A stretch of DNA of 64,000 nt, taken from the IMG/VR virus record IMGVR_UViG_3300034980_000290. One strand, written 5' to 3'. The notes below the pieces were generated by a model. It had not been told where the DNA came from and searched no databases. It saw nothing but the letters and a program-made list of their open reading frames with translations. Shown piece after piece: positions 15,620 to 42,787 of this stretch; the stretch's first letter is position 1; every line of letters begins with the position of its first letter. A program made the translations under genes and the position numbers. Source of the stretch: a virus. Taxonomy: Duplodnaviria; Heunggongvirae; Uroviricota; Caudoviricetes.

Positions 15620-15696
15620 GGGGTGCGTGCCTATTGTGCCGTATAGTATGGGGTTGGCGGCACGTGCCGCACACACCACGCACAAGGAGACACGCC
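15620..15696 (+). promoter_or_regulatory. conserved promoter-leader cassette
   Basis: gtgccgTATAGTatgg, gcggcacgtgccgc palindrome, caaggagacacgccATG. Confidence 0.45.
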
Positions 15697-16522: not shown

Positions 16523-16884
16523 GATTCAAGAGGGATACAGGCCATCACGGTCTGCGCTGCCGATTCGAGGTTGCGCTGTTGATCGACTGCTTGCCGGTCA
16601 ATCTCAGCGTCAGCATGTGGCGCAGCCACGTGGATCATCTGGCGGTGGCCGTGGATGCTGGTGCAGACCAGGTGTCATCCATCAGGCTGATGGCCGGTGG
16701 TCATGAGTTCACAAAGGACGGCATGGATGCCGACACCGCCCCATATGGGATCTGGCACCGCAAGAACGACGAAGCGGACGAGCCGTACGGCCCCAACTTC
16801 TACATCTTCTTCAAGCGCACGCAAGCCCACCTGAGAATCGATCAGGACGCTCAGGGCGTCGTCGTGGTGTTCTGCGACAAGTAG
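16519..16884 (+). CDS. hypothetical protein
   Basis: 121 aa coupled. Confidence 0.4.
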   Translation: MRFKRDTGHHGLRCRFEVALLIDCLPVNLSVSMWRSHVDHLAVAVDAGADQVSSIRLMAGGHEFTKDGMDADTAPYGIWHRKNDEADEPYGPNFYIFFKRTQAHLRIDQDAQGVVVVFCDK

Positions 16885-16905
16885 AGCGTGCCCAGATGCG
16901 CTTGT

Positions 16906-16971
16906 TCTGGGTGGTGTGGTGCTACAATGGTGGCACGGGCGGCCAGGGCGGCCAGCCCCAGGAGACCACGC
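16906..16971 (+). promoter_or_regulatory. conserved promoter-leader cassette
   Basis: ggTGcTACAATgg ... ccaggagaccacgcATG. Confidence 0.45.
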
Positions 16972-19147: not shown

Positions 19148-19210
19148 GTGTGGTGCTACCATTGTGTACGCAACCACGCGCCCGCGACAGGGCGCACAAG
19201 GAGACACGCA
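19148..19210 (+). promoter_or_regulatory. conserved promoter-leader cassette
   Basis: ggTGcTACCATtg, gcgccc-gcgaca-gggcgc hairpin, caaggagacacgcaATG. Confidence 0.45.
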
Positions 19211-20093: not shown

Positions 20094-20100
20094 ACAAGTA

Positions 20101-20197
20101 GGCGTCTTGTACGGAAACGCCGGTCTCACCTTGGTTTGTGCTACAATACGGTACGCAGGGGCCGCATTCCGCGGCCCCACCAACCAAGGAGACCACG
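20101..20197 (+). promoter_or_regulatory. conserved promoter-leader cassette with extended upstream box
   Basis: cttgtacggaaacgccggtctcaccttggtttgTGcTACAATacgg, ggggccgc-attcc-gcggcccc hairpin, ccaaggagaccacgcATG; upstream box also present at 21570. Confidence 0.5.
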
Positions 20198-21563: not shown

Positions 21564-21569
21564 CAAGAG

Positions 21570-21664
21570 CGTTGTACGGAAACGCTGGTCTGCCTTGGCA
21601 TGTGCTACAATACACTTGGCACGGCACGCGCAATCTTGCAGCGGGCCACGCCAGGAGACCACGC
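21570..21664 (+). promoter_or_regulatory. conserved promoter-leader cassette with extended upstream box
   Basis: gttgtacggaaacgctggtctgccttggcatgTGcTACAATacac ... gccaggagaccacgcATG. Confidence 0.5.
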
Positions 21665-22398: not shown

Positions 22399-22634
22399 TC
22401 TGCTTCAAGTGTCGTGTGCAAGATCAGTCTGCCACCCATGTGTGCCACAGGTGGGAAGAGGACGACTTAGCTGAGTGGAAGCCGAAAGACGGTGCCAAGT
22501 CTCGTCATGGTGTCATGTCAGGAGCAGTGGTGAGACTTATCACTCAGCAGAAGCACACAGACGGATCAACATGGTGGCAGACTGACCATCATGGAGTCAG
22601 GGTACCGGAGGCTGAACTCCACATCTGGGATTAG
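22395..22634 (+). CDS. Cys/His small protein
   Basis: 79 aa, CFKCRVQDQSATHVCH. Confidence 0.4.
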   Translation: MICFKCRVQDQSATHVCHRWEEDDLAEWKPKDGAKSRHGVMSGAVVRLITQQKHTDGSTWWQTDHHGVRVPEAELHIWD

Positions 22635-22639
22635 GCCAG

Positions 22640-23583
22640 TAGCATTGACACCCTCGATTGACAGTATCGTCAGCTGAACAGTCGCCAACGACACGACCAT
22701 AGGAAGACTTCATCTCTGTTCACAGATTCGTTCCCTACATAGGGGATAGGGGACCGAAAGACAGCTGAAGACTGACCACCACCCCCAGACGAAGAAGTGA
22801 AAGACACTGAGACCGATAGGTGCTCCAAGGGCCTACCTCCCCCTACCCCTGAGCCAGACCACAGAGAGACCAAGAGAGACAAGATAGAGCACCAGAGAGT
22901 ACATACTCCGTCTTGGAGTGAGATACGAGCGAGAGAGATTTTGCCTGTCTCATCTCTCTATTTCAGTCGTCCTTAGACGGATCCCGGCGTAGATCAGTAC
23001 GGATCCGCATATTCTTGGCATCTCGTTAGCCAGAAAAGTTCCTGTCTTATCCGGATCTCCGGAACAGATACAGATCTTGACACGGAAATAGATCTGGATC
23101 TGCATAGACAGAAAGATAACGAGAGATACGGATCCGCATAGATCAAGATCCTTTTGTCTACTTTTGCCTACCCTCGAGACACCCTCTCGACGGATAGACG
23201 GAAGTCACGGACCACAGATGTGCCCAGGAAGGTACTTCCCCTGCCCGTTCCGCACAGACGTGACCAGACTGACGCACTGCTGTGGGTAGGCCCATATATT
23301 CTTGGTGCCTTCTTGTGCGTTCTTAGCCCCTATCCTGCCCAGACGTGTTGCCTGCGGCCACCAGCGCCCACCACCTGGTCTGTGGTGGATCACAAGCCAT
23401 CAAAATCTCGTATCTCCAGAAGACTACAGATAGCGTGGGGTTCTGCAGATGAATCCGGATATCTACTTCTTGGGCTTCTACGGCATCTAACACGGAAGCT
23501 GTGGGGTATGTGGCACGTGTGCCGTATAATAGGGTACACACGCAACCAGTGGCACACGTGCCACATAACCAAGGAGCACACGC
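22640..23583. repeat. non-coding lower-GC region with AG-rich tract, GATC cluster and direct repeats (candidate origin/regulatory region)
   Basis: 10 GATC sites in 22977-23151; acggatccgcata x2; TTAGCCAGAAAAGTTCNTGTCTTATC copy 1 at 23022-23050 (copy 2 at 24483-24511). Confidence 0.5.
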
Positions 23584-24080: not shown

Positions 24081-24172
24081 TGCCATTCATCGTGGCAGTG
24101 ATCGTGGGAGTGATCCTGGGTGCGGGATTGTGCGTGATAGACACACGCATCGGATCGGAGTACGACGCATGA
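24077..24172 (+). CDS. tiny membrane protein (31 aa)
   Basis: MMPFIVAVIVGVILGAGLCVI; ATGA overlaps. Confidence 0.25.
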   Translation: MMPFIVAVIVGVILGAGLCVIDTRIGSEYDA

Positions 24173-24375
24173 ACAGCAAGATCTTGAGCGGATGCGTGGT
24201 GGCAGGTCTACTCTTGGCCATGCTGGCCACGGAGTACAGATGGGCAGCGATGGTGGTCACAGGTCTGTGGTGCACGGCTGCGCTGGCCATCCTGATCGCT
24301 GCCGGGCTGTACGTGGCAGACAAGGAACAGGCGGAGAGAGGCATACAGAGCACAGATCAGTACCAGGATCTGTAG
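24169..24375 (+). CDS. small two-TM membrane protein
   Basis: MNSKILSGCVVAGLLLAMLA...LWCTAALAILIAAGLYV. Confidence 0.4.
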   Translation: MNSKILSGCVVAGLLLAMLATEYRWAAMVVTGLWCTAALAILIAAGLYVADKEQAERGIQSTDQYQDL

Positions 24376-24589
24376 CAGACAAACAAAGACAGCGTGTGAC
24401 TCCTACGGAGGTGAGGATTTGCGCCTTGGATGGGCGTACGTTCTCACCTCCATCTTAGCCACCTTTGGTCTAGAGGTGAATTCGTTAGCCAGAAAAGTTC
24501 GTGTCTTATCTAGATATCCAGACTGAGAGACTGAGAGAGACTGAGAGACTCTCGAACAATCCGAAAAACGTCTGTCTTGTCTGGGCTGG

Positions 24590-25365
24590 GAGAGCTGCGG
24601 CATTTTGCCGCAGCAGTGCGGCATTCTGCCGCACCCTACATCTTGTGGTGCGGCATTCTGCCACACCAGTGCGGCATTTTGCCGCGGCACGTATGGCACG
24701 GGATTTGTTTCGGCACGGGATTTGTTTCGGCACGGGATTTGTTTCGGCACGGCACGTGCCATGGCACGGGATTTGTTTCGGCACGGCACGTGCCATGGCA
24801 CGGCATGTGCTACGCGCGGGTGGTGCTAAAGAGAAACGGCATAATCCGGGTGTCCACTTTTGAGGACACGGGTGTCCACTTTTGGGGAATGGCACAAGTG
24901 CCTGCCACGGCGGCACTTATGGCATGGCACGTAGGAATTGAGGGTATTGAGTGTCCTCTTTTGAGGACACCCGGGTTTGTATGCAACGTCCGTGCCACAA
25001 GCGGCACAAAGTATTTTTCTGGCATAAGCGTATGGCATATATAGACTTATGGCATGGCACGTATGGTCCGTCCGTCCGTCCGTCCATCTGGCACGGCCGT
25101 TGCTCTATGATGGGTGTCGGTGGCACAAAGCCAGGGCGCAAGGCCCGTCGACCCCGAATAGGGTTTACAGTTTACGTCCGCACCATATGGCGCGGACATG
25201 CATGCAAGTAGCAGGCACGGATCGCACGCACACGCCATCGCCAACCGGGGAACCGGGACCACTCGCCATGGCATGCCACTCGGGTTCCGGTACTACTTGC
25301 ATGCATGTCCGTGCCGTACGGTGTGGGCATTTCAACGCAACACGCAAACGATAGGAGACACGCAA
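24590..25365. repeat. iteron/palindrome array (candidate replication origin or operator cluster)
   Basis: gcggcattYtgccgc inverted repeat x4 (24597-24685); 17-mer ggcacgggatttgtttc x4 (24695-24779); gtgtccacttttgaggacac palindromes (24848-24972); ttatggcatggcacgta x2; (gtcc)5 microsatellite near 25066-25085; pervasive GGCAC/GTGCC half-sites. Confidence 0.6.
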
Positions 25366-25366
25366 C

Positions 25367-26044
25367 ATGACACGCAAAAAGAACACGGACAAGGCGGCCC
25401 CGGTGGTCGAAGCGGCGGCCCCGGTGGTCGAAGCGGCGGCCCCGGAAGCGGCGGCACCCACGGCACCCACGGCGGCCCCGGTGGCGGCCCCGGTGGACGC
25501 GGCCCCCACGGTCCGCCCCATCACGTGGGACGATGACGCGGCCCCGCCCACCATGGCGGACCTTCGGACGGCGGCCAGTGCCGTCCGCACGGGTTCGGCG
25601 GGCTGGTGGTACATGCACGCGCCGGACGGCAAGTTCGGCAACGGTGGCAAGCGGTACACCCACCGTCTGGCCATCGTGGACGGCATCGGCGATGCCCTTC
25701 CGGACGGTACGCGCCCCATCAACGGCGTGCGCTTCGTCGGGTTGACCTTCGACGCGGACGGCACGGTTGACCCGGCCGGGTGCGCTTCGTGGGTGCCCTC
25801 GACACGCGACCCGGCCCATGCGCCCATGGTCAAGGCGGACGGTCGCACGGTGGCGGGTTTGCCCTCCACGGCGGGCAACGGTGGCCCCGCCCCGCAGTGC
25901 GCGGACACCCGGGGCGCGCGCATCACGCTGCACCCCAACGTGGACGCGGACGGCACCCCGACCATGGTGGTGTCCGGTGCCAAGGGGGGCGCGTACAGTC
26001 TCTCCGGCATCGTGGACGCGGACGGCACCCCGCTGGCACTGTGA
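25367..26044 (+). CDS. Pro/Ala-rich protein with W-YMHAP-FG-GG-RY motif (paralog of 12161..12688)
   Basis: cassette ataggagacacgcaacATG; 21-nt in-frame tandem repeat gcggccccggtggtcgaagcg x2; GWWYMHAPDGKFGNGGKRYTHRLAIVDG. Confidence 0.55.
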   Translation: MTRKKNTDKAAPVVEAAAPVVEAAAPEAAAPTAPTAAPVAAPVDAAPTVRPITWDDDAAPPTMADLRTAASAVRTGSAGWWYMHAPDGKFGNGGKRYTHRLAIVDGIGDALPDGTRPINGVRFVGLTFDADGTVDPAGCASWVPSTRDPAHAPMVKADGRTVAGLPSTAGNGGPAPQCADTRGARITLHPNVDADGTPTMVVSGAKGGAYSLSGIVDADGTPLAL

Positions 26045-26614
26045 AGGCGGTAGCGGCGGCCCTGCTTCTGGCATGGGCCGCCGCCCTCATCGGGGCCGGG
26101 GCCGCCATGGCCCGTGCCATGGTGGCCGTGGCACGTGACCCCGACCCTGACACGGACGGCGCCCCGTAAGGGGTGTGCAATCCTGCCACACCCCCACCTG
26201 TAGGGGGTGTGGCATCCTGCCACGGCACGGCGGCGGCACGGCACACCACAACATATGGTGTGTAAAGTTTGGTTTACCTACGACATTTTGTACCCCCCCC
26301 GGGGGTGCTTGCCGAGAGCGGCCAAGCTCATGACATTGAAGCCTCAAGCATCGAGAACCCGTTCGTGAGAGGTATGGTAGTGAACAAACCCCATCGGTGT
26401 TACTCGAAGAGATGACTGGTTACAGAGGTCATCTCAACCCGCCAGACCGGCAACAGACCAGAACAAACCCGAAAGGGCACATCGGCACCCAAAAACTCGT
26501 ACTTCGTAGCAGCGGCCAGCCACCGCACTCCAATCATGGCACAGGCGGCTTCGCCTCCCTGAACGCTGGTACGTTGGATAGGGGCCGCGTTTCAAAAATC
26601 TCGTAGGGGGTAAG

Positions 26615-29225: not shown

Positions 29226-29495
29226 ATGAGCAAAAAACGGGTGAAAATGGCCGAAAACCGGGTAACTCCACGAAGAATTGTCATGTGTACCCGCCATGGC
29301 TGCTGTCGGCGGTTCCTTTTGCCCGTCACACACTACGTAGGCCGTTGCCCCCACTGTTTCACCATTGTGCGCCCGGAAATACTGCCCGACCACGCGCAAA
29401 GAATCCCTTCCCGGTTCGTATGGTTTATGATAGGCGCGTGCTGTCTCATGGCCGTGTTGGTCGCAGGGACATGGCTCGCCAGAACAGTGGGGTAA
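29226..29495 (+). CDS. zinc-finger plus TM small protein
   Basis: CTRHGCC...CPHC then WFMIGACCLMAVLVAGTWLA. Confidence 0.3.
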   Translation: MSKKRVKMAENRVTPRRIVMCTRHGCCRRFLLPVTHYVGRCPHCFTIVRPEILPDHAQRIPSRFVWFMIGACCLMAVLVAGTWLARTVG

Positions 29496-33537: not shown

Positions 33538-34527
33538 ATGGCCAAGAAAAGCACCAAGAAATCTGCAGAGCCAGAGGCAGTGCAACAAGCGTGGAAACGC
33601 TACAAGTCCAGAGGTGCAAAGGGGGGACGGCAAGAGGATAGGGACATCATTGTTGGCCAGTACATGCAGCTCGTTCGCTACGCTGCGAACCATGCCTGGA
33701 AGACGCTGCCGAACAACATTGATGTTGAAGACCTGGTATCCACTGGGTTTTTTGGTCTTTTGGACGCGATTGAGGGTTTTGACCTCTCGCGCAAGATCAA
33801 GTTCAAGACCTACTGCATGATGCGCATTCGTGGCGCCATGCTTGACGGCCTTCGCCGAGAGGATTGGATACCCCGCCTCGTTCGCTTGAAGGCCAGCCAG
33901 CACCGCAAAGCCGCCAAGAACGTGATGGCCCGCACTGGCTTACCGCCAACCCAAGAAGAAATGGCTGACGAGCTCGGTCTCACCGAGATTGAGTATGCCA
34001 AGTTCAAAAAGGCGATGGGGGTCATTCATGTCTACCCCCTGTCAGACAAGTTTGAGGCTGGCACCAGCGGCGAAGGCGTTGATAAGATTGATGTCATCGC
34101 CGATCCCAAGTCTGCTGAACCCATTGTTGAGCTTGAATCTGCTGATGCTGTAGTGCACATCATGCGGTGCTTGACAGCGCGTGAGAAGCGCATTGTGATG
34201 ATGTACTACTACATGGGCTTCACGATGAAGCAGATCTCGGAAGCCTTGGATCTCACTGAATCTCGCGTTTGCCAGATACACTCAGCCTTCATTGAGCGGT
34301 TGAGGTGCATGATTGAAAGAGACGGGCTTGACAATGCCGAAATACCGCAAGGGCGAAATGATGACGCGGTGGGGGTCTGTCGGGCTGTTTTGCGTGACCT
34401 CAAATGGCGTGGTGAAGAACGACGGCGATCTGGTAATGGGAAGAGGAATGGCCGCTTTACTGAAAAAGAAGTGGCCGCAATCCGCAACCCTGGCGGGAGA
34501 GAAGGCGACGGCGTGGTACAAGGCTGA
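33538..34527 (+). CDS. sigma-70 family RNA polymerase sigma factor (FliA/sigma-28-like group)
   Basis: region 2 DLVSTGFFGLLDAIEGFD...YCMMRIRGAMLDGLRR; region 4 HTH LTAREKRIVMMYYYMGFTMKQISEALDLTESRVCQIHSAFIERLR; C-terminal 70 aa low-complexity and overlapping next gene. Confidence 0.7.
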   Translation: MAKKSTKKSAEPEAVQQAWKRYKSRGAKGGRQEDRDIIVGQYMQLVRYAANHAWKTLPNNIDVEDLVSTGFFGLLDAIEGFDLSRKIKFKTYCMMRIRGAMLDGLRREDWIPRLVRLKASQHRKAAKNVMARTGLPPTQEEMADELGLTEIEYAKFKKAMGVIHVYPLSDKFEAGTSGEGVDKIDVIADPKSAEPIVELESADAVVHIMRCLTAREKRIVMMYYYMGFTMKQISEALDLTESRVCQIHSAFIERLRCMIERDGLDNAEIPQGRNDDAVGVCRAVLRDLKWRGEERRRSGNGKRNGRFTEKEVAAIRNPGGREGDGVVQG

Positions 34528-34844: not shown

Positions 34845-34895
34845 TGGTGGCACGTGTGCCGTATAAGGGTGCAGGCACAAAACCAAAGGCACAAC
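34845..34895 (+). promoter_or_regulatory. conserved promoter-leader cassette (GCCGTATAAG variant)
   Basis: gtggcacgtgtGCCGTATAAGggtg. Confidence 0.4.
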
Positions 34896-35423
34896 ATGCA
34901 AAACCCTCGCGCAAAGTACAAGGAACTGGCCGATTTGGCCGAGATCCCCACCACAGGCGGCGTCATGCTCAAGATGGGCGTTGACGTTTGTCTCTCGCCC
35001 ACCTGCCCGAACGCGCCGAAAGAGCAGCCGGAAGCCGTCGAAGAGGAGTCCAAGTGGCGTCCCGAGCGCCGTGGGCTCTGTCGTGCTTGCTACGCGGCCA
35101 TGATTCGAGACAAGCCTGAAACCGGCCCTGAGAGCTTCATCCCCTTCGAGAACGAAGGCCGGTGCCTTCCTCGCAACTTCGGCGGCAACAAGCCCCCAAT
35201 CCGCAAGGCACGCACGCCTGTCACGCCAGCATGGATGCAGGTGGCCTTGGGCACTGCCGCAGCCGTCCCGGCCGAGATGGCGGCTCCGGCGCCCGCTCCG
35301 GCGCCCGCTCCGGCGCCCGCTCCGGCGCCCACGGTCCCGATCGACTTCAGCGGCGACGCGGCCGAGTCCACAGCGGGCGGGGATGACCTGGACCGGCTGT
35401 TGAACACCGAAGTGGGCGAGTAG
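34896..35423 (+). CDS. zinc-ribbon protein with (AP)7 linker
   Basis: CLSPTCPN...CRACY; 12-nt tandem repeat gctccggcgccc x4 at 35283-35330 encoding APAPAPAPAPAPAP. Confidence 0.5.
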   Translation: MQNPRAKYKELADLAEIPTTGGVMLKMGVDVCLSPTCPNAPKEQPEAVEEESKWRPERRGLCRACYAAMIRDKPETGPESFIPFENEGRCLPRNFGGNKPPIRKARTPVTPAWMQVALGTAAAVPAEMAAPAPAPAPAPAPAPAPTVPIDFSGDAAESTAGGDDLDRLLNTEVGE

Positions 35424-35426
35424 TAC

Positions 35427-36392
35427 ATGCCGACAAAGACAACCAAGAAAACCGCCAAGAAGGCGCGAAAGAAGCGTACGCCCAAGGTCAAGCACGACCC
35501 GGTGTACGATCGCAATCTCCTCAAGCAGCTCGTGAGAACGTGCTATGACCTTCAGGAGAAGAGGATGGCCCATGGGCAGCGCCAGAAGGCCCTTGCCCAC
35601 CGTGGAATGCCAGAGCTCAACGAAAGCGACACAGGCGCCTTCGCCGAAATCTTCGGCGGCTTCAAAGACGTTGAAAGGCTCATCGAGAAGCAGATCCATA
35701 AGGTGCTGAAGAGGTTCCCAATCTGGACCAAGTGGTTGGACGAAGTCACAGGTGTTGGCCCAATGATGGGCGGCATCATCGTGAGCAAGTTCGACCCCTA
35801 CGACGCACCAGCCCCTGAAGGCTACGGGGTTGAACACGCTGGTGCCTATGAAGGCAAGTACCTGTTCCGTGAGTGCATTGACAAGGAGAAGGACACCTGG
35901 AATGTTGAGGAGCGCGAGTGCATCATGCGCCAGCGCACCGTCAGCCAGTTTTGGGCGTACTCCGGACTCCACACCATCGAGGTCGATGACAAGGAGGGTG
36001 GCAGGAAGCGTGTGGCGGCGCGGCAGGTAGCTGGGAAGCAGGGCAACTACGAGACATGGCTCAGGGCCAAGCTGTTGGGTGTCCTGGGTGACATCATGAT
36101 CAAGGGAGGCAGCCCGTACAAGAGGTACTACGACGAATGCAAGAAGCGTCGTATAGCCATGGGCTGGGGCACGACCGACATGCACCGGCACAAGGACGCC
36201 AAGCGGCACATGATGAAGTGTTTCATCATGGACCTCTACGTGCAGTGGCGTACGGTGCTTGACCTTCCGGTCAGGGCACCGTACGCCCTTGCAAAGATGG
36301 GGTTGTCCCCGGCGCAAGCGTTCCATGTAGAGGAACACCCAGGGTGGAACAGAAAGGACGCCGCTGAGGCGGCAGCAGCAGCAAATGGATGA
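35427..36392 (+). CDS. basic protein with helix-hairpin-helix region resembling IS110-transposase C-terminal (Transposase_20-like) domain; no DEDD nuclease domain seen
   Basis: Lys-rich N-term; VTGVGPMMGGIIVSKFDPYD and QFWAYSGLHTIEVDDKEGGRK...GNYETWLRAKLLGVLGDIM...YKRYYDECKKRR pattern. Confidence 0.35.
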   Translation: MPTKTTKKTAKKARKKRTPKVKHDPVYDRNLLKQLVRTCYDLQEKRMAHGQRQKALAHRGMPELNESDTGAFAEIFGGFKDVERLIEKQIHKVLKRFPIWTKWLDEVTGVGPMMGGIIVSKFDPYDAPAPEGYGVEHAGAYEGKYLFRECIDKEKDTWNVEERECIMRQRTVSQFWAYSGLHTIEVDDKEGGRKRVAARQVAGKQGNYETWLRAKLLGVLGDIMIKGGSPYKRYYDECKKRRIAMGWGTTDMHRHKDAKRHMMKCFIMDLYVQWRTVLDLPVRAPYALAKMGLSPAQAFHVEEHPGWNRKDAAEAAAAANG

Positions 36393-41095: not shown

Positions 41096-42787
41096 GTGAG
41101 TAGACTTAAACTTGGTCGCCAGATCTCCGATACGTCGCGACAAGCGATCAATGAGGAGATCATGCGCTATGCCGGAGACGAGTATCTCTGGCATCGACAC
41201 GTAACGGGTGTCGACCTTTACCCTCACCAGCAGGTCTACTGCAAGCATCTGAGGGAATTTCACACCAACTTGATGATCGCCAGTCGGCGTATCGGCAAGT
41301 CATTCAGTGTAGCCAGCTTCCTCCTGAAGGAGGCTGTGACCAAGCCCCGCTCCGAGATCAACATCCATGCCCCCGCGCTGGAGCAGAGCAAGCGCAACCT
41401 GCGGTACATGATTGACATGTGCCTCAACAGTGACATCTTGATGGCTTTCATTGAGAAGAAGCTGGGCGAAGGCATTGGCAAGGAGTCGATCGAATTCTGC
41501 AACGGTAGTGTCATCCAAGCCAAGGGGCAGGCATCGTCGGTTGACGGCCTTGGCGCGACCCACCAGTGGTGGGAAGAGGTAGATGACATGATGCTCGACA
41601 CCCTGTACGAGCGCATTTATCCGACAGGCTCCATGATCAAGCCCAGCTATGACTACGGTCAATGGGGCCAGTGCTGCCGTATCGCCACGGGCACCATCAA
41701 GGGCAAGGGCAACACGTACACCTTTGAGCACCCCCCAGAAGGCGCTGGGGTTACCTTCCACGTACTTCCTAAGTACACCGGGTGGCATGGGGTTGAGTGG
41801 GGCATTATCCCGCGCAATGACCTCATCCTTGCCCGCGACGTTCTGATGACCCCAGAACAGTTCGCGCGCACCTACCTCGTCCTGTACACTGAGTCGGCCA
41901 ACTTCTTCCCCACCCGCAAGGTGGACCAGTGCCAGCACCCGAACCTGAAGTGCATCGACATCGTCGAGTACAAGAAGGAAACTGGCAGCCCGCACTACAT
42001 CGCTGAAGGCAATGTCACGGTGGGCATCGACTGCGGCGGCCAGGGCACAGGGGACCACCCATCTGAGTGGGCCATTGACTTCTGCGAGGACCTGGGCTGG
42101 GGCCATATGAAGTGGATCTACGGTGAGCGATTCTCCGCCACCGCCGACCCTGAAGAGGTGCGCCAGCAGATGGGCGCCCTGTGTGAGTTCTTCCGCCCAG
42201 GCCGTGGGTACGGTGATGCTTTCGATACCACCTTCTTGTATGGTCTGAACAAGTACCTGCGCGAGCATGGTGTTACCAAGCGTGACCCGGCTGACTGGGA
42301 GAACCGTCAGGGAGCGGGTGGTTGGGCTGAGTGGCACATCGTACCCATCCGGTTCATCGGTATCACCAAGCACCAGTTGTTCAAGAACTTGCGCATGCAG
42401 TTCTTCCAGCAGCGCCTGAAAATCCCGTACTACGTTGATGACCTGCCCGAGTACAAGGAACTGAAAAAGCTCCGTGACCAGCTTGAAAACATCAAGAAGG
42501 CTGACATGGCAGCGACGCAGGGATACGACAAGTACGAGATGGTCAGAGCCGCTGTCGGGGATGACCACGTAGATGCGACGGCCTTGGCCGTATATGCACA
42601 GGGTGAGCTGACTCAAAATGTCAGGCCACTTGGGATGGCGGTTGAGGGTGGCGGCTTCCGGGACTTCTCGCAGCCGAACATCGTTAGCGACCAAGTGTTC
42701 GTTCAGAGGCCTTCGGGGATCTTTACCCCGATCGGTGACTCTGCTCCGCCAACGAACGTCGGAGACTTTCTCAAGGACCGAGATTGA
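41096..42787 (+). CDS. terminase large subunit
   Basis: 563 aa, GTG start; Walker A-like ASRRIGKS; position immediately upstream of portal. Confidence 0.7.
   Translation: MSRLKLGRQISDTSRQAINEEIMRYAGDEYLWHRHVTGVDLYPHQQVYCKHLREFHTNLMIASRRIGKSFSVASFLLKEAVTKPRSEINIHAPALEQSKRNLRYMIDMCLNSDILMAFIEKKLGEGIGKESIEFCNGSVIQAKGQASSVDGLGATHQWWEEVDDMMLDTLYERIYPTGSMIKPSYDYGQWGQCCRIATGTIKGKGNTYTFEHPPEGAGVTFHVLPKYTGWHGVEWGIIPRNDLILARDVLMTPEQFARTYLVLYTESANFFPTRKVDQCQHPNLKCIDIVEYKKETGSPHYIAEGNVTVGIDCGGQGTGDHPSEWAIDFCEDLGWGHMKWIYGERFSATADPEEVRQQMGALCEFFRPGRGYGDAFDTTFLYGLNKYLREHGVTKRDPADWENRQGAGGWAEWHIVPIRFIGITKHQLFKNLRMQFFQQRLKIPYYVDDLPEYKELKKLRDQLENIKKADMAATQGYDKYEMVRAAVGDDHVDATALAVYAQGELTQNVRPLGMAVEGGGFRDFSQPNIVSDQVFVQRPSGIFTPIGDSAPPTNVGDFLKDRD

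Follow-up and report, generated by a model that had tools for sequence, protein, structure and literature searches.

A 991-nt gap crowded with TGGCAC(G) sites in a novel phage: a possible promoter/operator hub read at the DNA level

The window analysed here, a stretch of 64,000 nucleotides (64 kb), belongs to a novel phage of ~112 kb in which nearly all called genes lie on one strand and which encodes a FliA/WhiG-type sigma factor of its own, a TasA-like RNA-guided protein and a pathway for 7-deazaguanine DNA modification. Positions 24376-25366 form a gap of 991 nt without genes, in which we found four palindromes in helical phase, a seven-unit head-to-tail array of 17-bp repeats, three palindromes with 8-bp stems, a duplicated 19-mer, a (GTCC)5 microsatellite and a 155-nt hairpin (Table 1). 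This repeat locus is the densest cis-element within the 64 kb examined. An earlier note had listed repeats and palindromes at 24590-25365, and every element on its list is present. The four inverted repeats correspond to GCGGCATTYTGCCGC at 24597-24611, 24618-24632 and 24671-24685 and to the one-mismatch copy GCGGCATTCTGCCAC at 24650-24664; the 17-mer GGCACGGGATTTGTTTC stands in perfect tandem at 24695, 24712 and 24729, with a further copy at 24763; the stem palindromes are GTGTCCACTTTTGAGGACAC (24850-24869) and GTGTCCTCTTTTGAGGACAC (24951-24970); the repeated motif TTATGGCATGGCACGTA begins at 24917 and 25047, inside the exact 19-mer; and the microsatellite was confirmed at 25066-25085.

Table 1 Features of the 991-nt gap and its downstream flank (positions in the window; TRF, tandem repeat finder; D and I, direct- and inverted-repeat families)
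Feature	Position	Strand	Remarks
Long imperfect hairpin (inverted repeat I4)	24407-24451	+	Directly after the stop codon of gene 24169-24375; in MFE and centroid structures
41-nt element TCGTTAGCCAGAAAAGTTCSTGTCTTATC...	24482-24522		Direct-repeat family D11; 88% identity to 23023-23063
Short tandem repeat (AGACTGAG/AGACTGAGAG) x3	24520-24550		TRF
Four 15-bp palindromes GCGGCATTYTGCCRC, core GGCA-N3-TGCC	24597-24685		Inverted repeats
Seven head-to-tail 17-bp units, YGGCACGG + 9 nt	24694-24812	+	TRF period 17/34
Degenerate eighth array unit	24813-24829	+	
Palindromes GTGTCC(A/T)CTTTTGAGGACAC	24850-24869, 24951-24970		Repeat families D3, D8, I3
Truncated third copy of the GTGTCC(A/T)CTTTTGAGGACAC palindrome	24872-24888		
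TGGCACAAGTGCC	24890-24902		Between the 24850 and 24951 palindromes
19-mer ACTTATGGCATGGCACGTA, exact copies	24915-24933, 25045-25063		Repeat family D8
Perfect sigma-54 consensus match TGGCACGGACGTTGCA	24982-24997	-	Inverted repeat I10; inverted copy of the 25089 element
Weak terminator-like stem-loop GTGCCACAAGCGGCAC, then AAAGTATTTTT	24992-25018	+	Consensus scan
AT-rich 40-mer, 67.5% A+T, candidate unwinding or bending segment	25012-25051		Between the two sigma-54-like elements
(GTCC)5 microsatellite	25066-25085		TRF
Perfect sigma-54 consensus match TGGCACGGCCGTTGCT	25089-25104	+	Points to gene 25367; 263 nt upstream of its ATG
Near-perfect hairpin, 155 nt (34-nt outer arms and inner stems)	25176-25330	+	Inverted repeat I2
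GTGCCGTACGGT, variant of the class II promoter core GTGCCGTATAAT	25311-25322	+	Ends 45 nt upstream of the 25367 ATG
AGGAG (SD)	25353-25357	+	Before gene 25367
First gene past the gap, 225 aa	25367-26044	+	Pro/Ala-rich N-terminus; 21-nt tandem repeat
Satellite cluster: TGGCATCCTGCCA, two GGCACGG 11 nt apart, then an AT-rich 40-mer	26210-26292		Downstream of the two-gene unit

The gap is non-coding. The suspicion that the ORFs running through the repeats are artefacts is borne out by codon log-likelihoods, which are negative (-9 to -39) for all ORFs inside the region, compared with +15 to +81 for the genes flanking it; moreover, none of the eight gap ORFs tested had a Pfam match, and no gene was called in the gap in an independent assembly. 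The stretch 24376-25120 has a folding z-score (RNA/DNA) of -9. No tRNAs were found, and no match in Rfam 15 reached its gathering threshold, the best sub-threshold matches, both driven by hairpins, being RT-3 (27 bits versus a threshold of 40.5) and Mahella-1 (30.3 versus 70.7). A sigma-70 consensus scan found no promoter on the + strand of the region. At its upstream edge, the I4 hairpin probably ends the preceding operon as a factor-independent terminator lacking a U-tail; T-tails are absent from most post-gene hairpins of this phage. The second site of the 41-nt element lies in the other large non-coding gap.

At the other end, gene 25367 heads a + strand run to which the genes for ThyA, Rrf2, the sigma factor and TasA belong. 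The 155-nt hairpin, which had not been noticed before, lies in its leader, and the fold of 25105-25366 has a z-score of -6.25, with 0 of 200 shuffles folding as well. The product of the gene had no Pfam or PHROG match; its AF2 model is unusable (pLDDT 45.6), and the protein looks beta-rich. The sole homologue found is a distant one (~40% identity) on a 1-kb contig, L002, in which the 148 nt before the ATG contain three GGCAC-type motifs and a GGCACCGTGCC dyad, so the word appears to have been kept across considerable divergence.

Searches for the region itself returned little. No relatives of the phage were found in INPHARED or IMG/VR, and IMG/VR contained neither an exact match to the array and palindrome patterns nor a homologue of the neighbouring protein. 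The sole other copy found, in the ENA contig L001, is 100% identical over all 991 nt; the relatives found do not cover the region, and two Logan contigs begin downstream of it. A distant-mode blastn search against phages and plasmids gave no matches to the region. Scans for a threefold GGCACGG-N10 pattern returned 4 viral and at least 120 metagenome loci, which were set aside as unrelated 17-nt tandem repeats with no protein homology to the phage.

The element common to the whole gap is a short word: ~30 sites built on TGGCAC(G) are packed into the 991 nt. Given the 7-deazaguanine pathway of the phage, the guanines of these motifs could carry modifications. The saturation with GGCAC described in the earlier note is real, with 18 occurrences in 776 nt (23/kb) against 2.3/kb across the window. 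GGCACG/CGTGCC occurs at 0.66/kb in coding and 1.95/kb in other intergenic DNA and reaches 23/kb in the region; the ~3-fold excess of other intergenic over coding DNA is significant (Fisher p=5e-4). The scattered copies of the word are mostly intergenic and show a strand bias (11 on the + strand versus 6 on the -). Related palindromes that had been noticed elsewhere were recovered at 15659, 23512/23551 and 34849, in promoter-like sequence. We defined two phage promoter families, and GGCACG overlaps both: GGCAC dyads overlap -28 to -22 and about +12 to +25 of three GTGCCGTATA promoters, and GGCACGG stands just downstream of two TGCTACAAT promoters. Altogether, at least six promoters, at distances of up to 10 kb, carry the half-site. 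Another 13.8 kb of this phage contains neither promoter cores nor dyads, which confines the system to the 6-35 kb early/middle part of the window.

The recurrence of the word at promoter leaders makes a common trans-acting reader a reasonable proposal, and this part of the suggestion that a single protein recognises all of the palindromes can be retained. A single rigid dimer is another matter. Inverted GGCAC pairs are strongly enriched (nine occurrences of GGCAC-N0-2-GTGCC against 0.62 expected, a number that 0 of 100 shuffles reached), but the pairs have spacers of 0, 1, 2 and 5 nt, which fit one rigid dimeric binder poorly. That many promoters carry the motif speaks for a transcription factor more than for an origin. 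TGGCACG is not a known target of any recognisable DNA binder of the window, these being Rrf2 (29499), an HU/IHF-like protein (39506), the FliA/WhiG-like sigma factor (33538) and TasA (35427).

The arrangement of the sites suggests that they are read as DNA. The four 15-bp palindromes are spaced 21, 32 and 21 bp from centre to centre, that is, 2, 3 and 2 helical turns, a phasing that had previously gone unseen. Such whole-turn spacing would place bound proteins on one face of the DNA and favours a DNA-face function over an RNA function. The four copies of GGCACGGGATTTGTTTC belong to a longer in-register array, whose full seven-unit extent had likewise been missed; all seven units begin with YGGCACGG, and the variable 9 nt that follow read GATTTGTTT in four units, CACGTGCCA in another two and CATGTGCTA in the last type. 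This array is the sole periodic chain and the sole k-mer cluster in the 64 kb. Its units are bipartite, and all seven fit GGCACG-N4-KTGY, a form found in total at 11 of the 18 sites in the region but at 0 of the 53 elsewhere. Since the KTGY half is absent from the 53 outside sites, array sites and promoter sites may not be equivalent.

We consider a DNA-level multi-site binding locus acting as a promoter/operator hub to be the most likely function, at a probability of roughly 0.4. From the sequence, we infer both that proteins bind at the repeats and that this has a regulatory outcome. The 991-bp gap would be a nucleoprotein assembly site, with its ~30 TGGCAC(G) sites recognised by one sequence-specific reader that also has sites on or just downstream of both phage promoter families. 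It sits between the probable terminator hairpin of the upstream operon and gene 25367, whose promoter or promoters it would contain; the in-phase palindromes and the abutted 17-bp units might be occupied cooperatively and so control transcription into the downstream block. The locus may also buffer or titrate the regulator, because it holds far more sites than all the promoters together. Against this reading, abutted direct repeats, dyads made of the same half-site and an AT-rich segment are the classic layout of an iteron origin.

An iteron-type replication origin is accordingly the main rival, possible in our view but somewhat unlikely. Initiator monomers would bind the seven 17-bp repeats, and dimers would bind the same-half-site dyads for autoregulation; melting would start at the AT-rich segment 25012-25051, possibly with priming by transcripts from the promoter-like elements on its flanks, in the manner of T4 oriF/G or the T7 origin. 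The initiator would be encoded by gene 25367, and the smaller cluster at 26210-26292 would play the part of a control locus such as P1 incA or F incC. The layout is indeed suggestive: seven 17-bp direct repeats occur together with GGCACGTGCC dyads from the same half-site, gene 25367 has site clusters on both sides, GGCAC motifs also precede its distant orthologue in L002, and two of the most AT-rich 40-mers of the window lie inside the locus and just downstream (the A+T content of 25012-25051 is the highest in the window, tied with 26253-26292). Downstream, genes for nucleotide and DNA metabolism lie within 3-13 kb, encoding ThyA (27647) and an SbcD-like exonuclease (37027). Moreover, an unrelated metagenome contig, L137, carries four copies of a similar 17-mer, GGCACGGATTTTGTCAC, next to a DnaA-box-like TTATATCCACA and AT-rich DNA, so such arrays do occur in origin-like settings.

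However, the components that an origin of this type would be expected to have are hard to recognise here. No DnaA box was found in the region as a match to TTATCCACA or TTGTCCACA at up to one mismatch, the nearest likeness being 7 of 9 positions (high-GC DnaA boxes) inside the GTGTCCAC palindromes. The AT-rich segment, of only 40 nt, is separated from the array by 200 bp and contains no repeated 13-mers. Gene 25367 shows no Rep or winged-helix signature (Pfam/PHROG, with a poor AF2 model), and neither a gene for a helicase, primase or polymerase nor a + strand Walker A motif occurs in the whole window. In addition, the units abut at 17 bp instead of having the usual ~22 bp spacing on one DNA face, and a half-site that decorates at least six promoters up to 10 kb off is atypical for initiator sites. 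GC skew does not change sign here but is uninformative as to where replication starts.

Another important question is what the reader of the word could be, a phage regulator or host sigma-54. The bipartite structure of the units, not seen in the earlier note, resembles that of sigma-54 promoters, which suggests a reading in which host sigma-54 RNA polymerase is the reader and the locus is a cluster of -24/-12 promoters. The 25089(+) element would drive gene 25367 through a structured 250-nt leader, with 24997(-) as its divergent partner, while the seven weaker tandem -24/-12 elements would load or sequester holoenzyme and the palindromes would serve as enhancer (UAS) sites. We regard this identification, with the array and the perfect inverted pair as loading or decoy sites for the holoenzyme, as doubtful; it concerns the identity of the reader and thus overlaps with the promoter/operator hub. 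The matches are nevertheless concentrated: TGGCAYG-N4-TTGCW at up to one mismatch occurs five times on both strands of the 64 kb, and all five matches lie within the 991 nt, the numbers expected by chance being 0.03 for the gap and 2.1 for the window as a whole. Two of the five are perfect, the only perfect matches in the 64 kb, and form an inverted pair around the AT-rich 25012-25051; the other three, with one mismatch each, lie in the array. GGCACG-N4-KTGC is found at 7 of the 18 sites here against a background of 1% (p about 3e-10), and the enrichment of the KTGY form described above points the same way. The L002 orthologue carries TGGCACGACCCGTGCT (11 of 12 positions) 94 nt upstream of its ATG, the sole such match in that contig, and there are no sigma-54-like matches in the 13.8 kb more of the phage or in the related phages L091 and L092.

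Several observations weigh against sigma-54. The lack of U-tails on most terminators and the phage sigma factor, which scores best on an actinobacterial WhiG model, hint at an actinobacterial host, and to our knowledge Actinobacteria lack rpoN. As a host marker, ThyA is uninformative, with 55-60% identity to everything from archaea to Bacteroidetes. A search of all frames of the window for an enhancer-binding protein turned up neither a GAFTGA motif nor a + strand Walker A, and the 91 window proteins include no Sigma54_activat domain; an activator supplied by the host is possible. No gene is placed so that the - strand element could drive it, GT replaces the near-invariant GC at -12 in the four commonest units, and the copies of TGGCACG at class II promoters have no -12 element. 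For the GTGC of units 4, 6 and 7 and of L002, the inverted half of a 6-5-6 dyad, TGGCAC-N5-GTGCCA, is an equally good explanation. A literature search for sigma-54 promoters in phages turned up essentially nothing.

Could the array be read as RNA instead? The HhH protein at 35427, proposed earlier as a candidate binder, proved to be a TasA-like TIGR-Tas protein (NCBIfam NF052498, 113.5 bits versus a cutoff of 100), and as such it would bind DNA through guide RNAs and not through a fixed motif. Its alignment with the solved IS110-type chain 9mty_A, presumably the published TasR, begins at residue 137 of the latter, which would leave no room for a nuclease domain. TasA proteins have been reported as RNA-guided repressors (10.64898/2026.09.09.750476). 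It is conceivable, if improbable and clearly less likely than the sigma-54 reading, that the 17-nt array supplies this protein (35427-36392) with guides as a TIGR array of non-canonical form, or with some other processed ncRNA; the protein would then be guided to the phage's own promoters. In this form, a degenerate single-repeat array would serve an otherwise array-less TasA, its blocks CACGUGCCA and CAUGUGCUA guiding it to class II and class I promoters, respectively. No canonical TIGR array was found elsewhere in the window. An 8-nt repeat starting with YG plus a 9-nt block gives a 34-nt double unit that approaches the 36-nt dual-repeat unit (PMC12045711; 10.64898/2026.09.09.750476). Furthermore, exact matches to CACGTGCCA occur at four other places, of which three are at class II promoters, and CATGTGCTA has one at a class I promoter, with ~0.5 expected in each case.

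Nevertheless, the array departs from TIGR arrays in most of the features compared. It has a single repeat type, YGGCACGG, instead of alternating edge and loop repeats; by published criteria (PMC12045711, 10.64898/2026.09.09.750476), the box C position reads CGG and is not CCA-like, and the repeat starts with TG or CG. The seven blocks comprise only three "spacer" types, which have A at position 2 and TG at positions 5-6 in common; the commonest, GATTTGTTT (four copies), has no targets in the window, and another reads as the repeat in reverse complement. A distance of 10.6 kb separates the array from tasA, and Rfam returned only the sub-threshold hairpin matches. A re-implementation of the published search found no stem-loop TIGR unit in the region and five scattered matches, at chance level, in 128 kb. 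By comparison, the locus of a TasA that is 32% identical (L095) has a textbook array immediately downstream, with a period of 36-37 nt, two repeats and diverse spacers; the same scans detected it, and their sensitivity is thus sufficient. With this positive control, the stem-loop and dual-repeat searches make a TIGR guide array an improbable reading of the 17-nt array. Closer TasA homologues (56% and 51% identity) also have no adjacent array. No GGCAC locus comparable to the region was found at the TasA homologue loci L091-L099. At one of these, L092, 10-nt A-tract repeats lie upstream of the Rrf2 gene; their counterpart is window 29230-29265 and not this region.

The earlier note had also named a pac site, and a packaging site or physical terminus recognised by terminase is the least credible of the readings, being highly improbable. 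In its favour, binding sites of small terminases typically contain short direct repeats, two independent Logan contigs begin at window ~25416, and in the unrelated viral contig L087, 17-nt tandem repeats closely precede an ORF that, read by eye, is putatively terminase-small-subunit-like. However, the terminase large-subunit gene (41162-42787) is 16 kb away, which weakly contradicts the proposal; the Logan contigs break inside the perfect 21-nt tandem repeat in gene 25367, where a short-read assembly would be expected to break; and both the 112-kb ENA contig and the window itself read straight through the region.

Whichever reader is involved, a core word common to both promoter families makes the locus an obvious entry point to the transcription schedule and replication start of this phage. 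A conventional repressor or initiator would make it an ordinary operator cluster or origin. If the reader were sigma-54 or TasA, the locus would be a rare case of a phage using that machinery: in the former case, sigma-54 would be a phage-exploited factor, and in the latter, the phage would time its gene expression with an RNA-guided repressor.

Comparison with known systems places these possibilities in context. Like dual-repeat TIGR arrays (Faure et al. 2025, PMC12045711), the locus alternates 8-nt YG repeats with 9-nt blocks in a genome that has a Tas-family gene, but its unit is 34 nt instead of 36, and it has almost no spacer diversity. It shares with sigma-54 (-24/-12) promoters the correct GG-N10-GC spacing and one correctly oriented element upstream of a gene, but its elements form a 17-bp tandem array and an inverted pair. 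The ~17-bp direct repeats, the repeat-derived dyads and the nearby AT-rich segment recall P1 oriR/incA, F ori2/incC and RK2 oriV (17-bp iterons), and gene 25367 is flanked by site clusters as in iteron control loci; in contrast to iteron origins, there are no DnaA boxes and no recognisable Rep, and the half-site also decorates many promoters. The four in-phase palindromes with T-tract centres recall the four dyad-symmetric iterons of lambda ori. With T4 oriF/oriG and the T7 primary origin, the gap shares, as far as sequence can tell, promoter-like elements beside a short AT-rich segment, its non-coding nature and its place at the head of an early/middle gene block, but its promoter-like elements are of a different class. 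In the mycobacteriophage L5 stoperators, the P1 C1 operators and the RK2 KorB operators, we know of no 500-bp locus with dozens of tandem sites. Nonetheless, these systems likewise spread one short word over many promoters and leaders, and the locus described here is an ordinary kind of element with unusual details.

Nearly all genes in the window lie on the + strand according to a codon-usage gene caller trained on long ORFs, which left two large gene-free gaps, at 22399-23583 and 24376-25366. The latter, hereafter the region, is far from random. The density of GGCAC is 23/kb, versus 2.3/kb in the window; GGCAC-N0-2-GTGCC was observed nine times versus 0.62 expected; the folding z-score is -9; and only here in the 64 kb was a periodic chain or 6-mer cluster found. 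The region is also non-coding, as the earlier note had supposed when it took the ORFs running through the repeats for probable artefacts: the codon log-likelihood is negative for every internal ORF and clearly positive in the neighbours, and none of the eight internal ORFs tested matches Pfam. A coding reading is unlikely. The other gap (1,185 nt) contains many short palindromes on GATC/GGATCC together with AGA-rich runs, is not unusually structured (z = -1), and includes a single TIGRFinder-like stem-loop match (- strand, 22635-22692) at chance level.

All the repeats listed in the earlier note are present at slightly shifted coordinates, with two amendments: the fourth of the four palindrome copies has one mismatch, and the four 17-mers form part of a more extended array (24694-24812), in which seven 17-nt units stand in register; all seven begin with YGGCACGG, and a degenerate eighth unit follows. 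Two hairpins and a 41-nt element, absent from that list, are included in the table. The four 15-bp palindromes have centre spacings of 21, 32 and 21 bp, i.e., 2, 3 and 2 helical turns, the phasing that would be required for proteins to bind cooperatively along one DNA face. The inverted GGCAC pairs have spacers of 0, 1, 2 and 5 nt, a range that one rigid dimer would not be expected to tolerate.

Coordinates of repeat elements, promoter-like sequences and selected genes
Feature	Position	Sequence	Remark
Hairpin	24407-24451		right after the upstream stop codon
41-nt element	24482-24522, 23023-23063		common to both large gaps
155-nt hairpin	25176-25330		z = -6.25
Perfect sigma-54 consensus match	25089-25104 (+)		
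Perfect sigma-54 consensus match	24982-24997 (-)		
Class I promoter-like, extended -10 core	16920, 20139, 21603	TGCTACAAT	variants at 19153, 6313
Class I spans	16880-16928, 20100-20147, 21565-21611	TGCTACAAT/TGCTACCAT	
Class II promoter-like, core	15636, 23519, 34856	GTGCCGTATA(A/G)(T/G)	
Class II spans	15627-15673, 23510-23563, 34847-34893		flanked by GGCAC dyads
Class II variant	25311-25322	GTGCCGTACGGT	ends 45 nt upstream of gene 25367-26044
Satellite cluster		TGGCATCCTGCCA, two GGCACGG copies, other most AT-rich 40-mer	just after the two-gene unit preceded by the region
ThyA, Rrf2 regulator, SPFH protein			downstream of the region
FliA/WhiG-type sigma factor	33538-34527		downstream of the region
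SbcD-like exonuclease, HU/IHF-like protein			downstream of the region
Terminase, portal, capsid, tail genes	41 kb onward		

Two promoter-like families were found in the window. The class I copies have ~50 nt of upstream sequence in common (GACAAG...GTCT...) and each lie 44-54 nt ahead of a + strand gene; GGCACGG stands just downstream of two of these promoters. Class II promoters are overlapped by GGCAC dyads in their spacer region and at about +12 to +25. The -10 element of sigma-28 is GCCGATAA, and since the class II core resembles it, class II may be read by the phage's own FliA/WhiG-like sigma factor. In the other intergenic DNA, GGCACG/CGTGCC is 3-fold denser than in coding DNA (p = 5e-4), and there are no promoter cores or dyads in another 13.8 kb of this phage. 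The best explanation of the region would be a promoter/operator hub, i.e., a multi-site locus bound at the DNA level that would control transcription, to which we assign a probability of about 0.4. Four features together point to it: the region does not code for protein, the palindromes are helically phased, the core word is shared with the phage's promoters and positioned on them, and the location has a terminator on one side and the leading gene of the following block on the other.

The array units are not of the 'constant plus random' type, since all seven fit GGCACG-N4-KTGY. At the 18 GGCACG sites of the region, KTGY occupies the unit offset in 11 cases (KTGC in seven), versus 0/53 for KTGY at the sites elsewhere in the window. 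Judged by its sequence, this bipartite word corresponds to the sigma-54 promoter consensus: TGGCAYG-N4-TTGCW, with at most one mismatch, has five matches on both strands of the window, all five of them in the region. The two perfect matches form an inverted repeat flanking 25012-25051, the most AT-rich 40-mer of the window (tied with 26253). For units 4, 6 and 7 there is a second way to parse the variable part, namely as the inverted half of a 6-5-6 dyad (TGGCAC-N5-GTGCCA); this parse is impossible for both perfect sigma-54 elements and for the four GATTTGTTT units. That sigma-54 itself reads the motif, a proposal overlapping with the hub, is improbable despite the strong consensus statistics: a search of the window revealed no activator, GT stands at -12 in the commonest unit, and terminators without U-tails together with the WhiG-like sigma factor suggest a host phylum that, to our knowledge, is without rpoN. 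Approximately 30 hairpins were found after + strand genes, only two of them with a T-rich tail; the tail-less ones indicate 'I-shaped' terminators and give a hint on host lineage.

Direct repeats, dyads and AT-rich DNA together make up the classic pattern of an iteron-type replication origin, one of the functions proposed in the earlier note, and site clusters lie on both sides of the adjacent gene. We nevertheless consider an origin somewhat unlikely: DnaA boxes are absent, the units abut, the word is present on many promoters, and the window holds no recognisable initiator and no replication genes. Neither a helicase, primase nor polymerase was recognisable within the 64-kb window, and Walker A (GxxxxGK[ST]) is absent from all + strand frames of the 64 kb; the replication genes must therefore lie in the remaining ~34 kb of the genome. 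A pac site, also proposed in that note, is unlikely.

This tailed phage is novel: when 22-28 kb was compared by megablast with 50,697 phage records, no match was returned, and the large terminase has a single weak match (30% identity). A near-identical ENA contig of 112,310 bp exists, and a 112,629-bp contig is also on record; the ENA contig matches the region at 100% identity, which leaves no variation to analyse. Gene 25367-26044 has one distant homologue, on a contig of 1,091 bp, with an identity of 40-44% that varies with the alignment. Within the 148 nt upstream of this homologue's ATG are three AATCG-GGCAC-type motifs, a TGGCACGACCCGTGCT element that agrees with the sigma-54 consensus at 11/12 positions, and a GGCACCGTGCC dyad; thus, both the word and the bipartite element have been retained despite considerable divergence. 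Further searches, for relatives or for arrays of a similar kind, returned only unrelated 17-nt tandem repeats. An unrelated metagenome contig (L137:1-110) starts with four copies of GGCACGGATTTTGTCAC, identical to the array unit at 13/17 positions, followed by DnaA-box-like TTATATCCACA and AT-rich DNA in an origin-like layout. Gene 25367-26044 itself includes a perfect 21-nt tandem repeat encoding AAPVVEA (25393-25445), of which one unit is missing from the ENA copy (P0001; 218 aa vs 225 aa); two Logan contigs break within it, at ~25416.

The 321-aa protein encoded at 35427-36392 (+), labelled 'HhH' in the earlier note, instead passes the NCBIfam model 'TIGR-Tas system RNA-guided endonuclease' (113.5 bits vs a cutoff of 100). 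It aligns with the solved IS110-type chain 9mty_A, which we take to be the published TasR, from chain residue 137; only ~65 residues precede the aligned part, leaving no room for a nuclease domain, and with this N-terminus missing, the protein is TasA-like. Gene 34896-35423, directly upstream of tasA, encodes a zinc-ribbon-like product, carries a perfect 12-nt x4 tandem repeat, GCTCCGGCGCCC (35283-35330, encoding APAP...), and appears to form one operon with tasA. TIGR arrays are described as consisting of alternating 8-12-nt edge/loop repeats with a UG start, a CCA end and 9-nt spacers or, in a second type, of stem-loops around two boxC-N9-boxD modules (PMC12045711); explicit search rules are available, and TasA proteins are reported as RNA-guided repressors (2026 preprint, 10.64898/2026.09.09.750476). 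Because the 17-nt units can be split into an 8-nt repeat and a 9-nt block, with two of the blocks being exact matches to phage promoters, the array was tested as a guide array by re-implementing the published searches. As a positive control, these scans recovered a textbook dual-repeat array on another contig (L095:10960-11500, also L096:3254-3790), where it immediately follows a tasA of 32% identity. That array comprises at least 14 units with a period of 36-37 nt; its repeats are AGCGAGCC and AAGTCACCC, its spacers are diverse, and it has a terminal hairpin. The re-implemented search detected no stem-loop TIGR units in the region. Whereas a dual-repeat array alternates two repeats, the array here has a single type of repeat, lacks a CCA-like box and shows only three 'spacer' types with internal positions in common; its commonest block has no target within the window, and it lies 10.6 kb from tasA. 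We rejected the guide-array reading on these grounds, and a role as guides for the TasA-like protein is very improbable. No canonical TIGR array is detectable in the 64-kb window, so that this Tas is an 'orphan' in a 112-kb phage of lytic appearance; closer TasA homologues (56% and 51% identity) also have no adjacent array. Phased A-tracts (GAAAAYGG-type, period ~10-11 nt) occur upstream of the Rrf2 gene at 29230-29265, and similar tracts precede the Rrf2 gene of the relative with the 56%-identical TasA (L092:170-330), where they form a long array at the contig end.

Homologues of QueC, QueD (QueD/PTPS), QueE(-like), QueF and FolE are encoded in L085:1-10000, the 10-kb stretch of the same phage that lies upstream of the window, and a DpdA-like queuine tRNA-ribosyltransferase PHROG match lies inside the window. 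7-Deazaguanine pathway genes are present in the phage; some G in its DNA is probably replaced, and this replacement could affect binding to the G-rich motifs of the region.

The finding is both real and statistically robust. None of these results demonstrates a new kind of system, and elements of this kind are well known from phages and plasmids; what is unusual in detail, namely the tandem sigma-54-like bipartite units, the perfect inverted pair flanking an AT-rich core, the word common to promoters and the TasA context, makes the locus worth an experiment.
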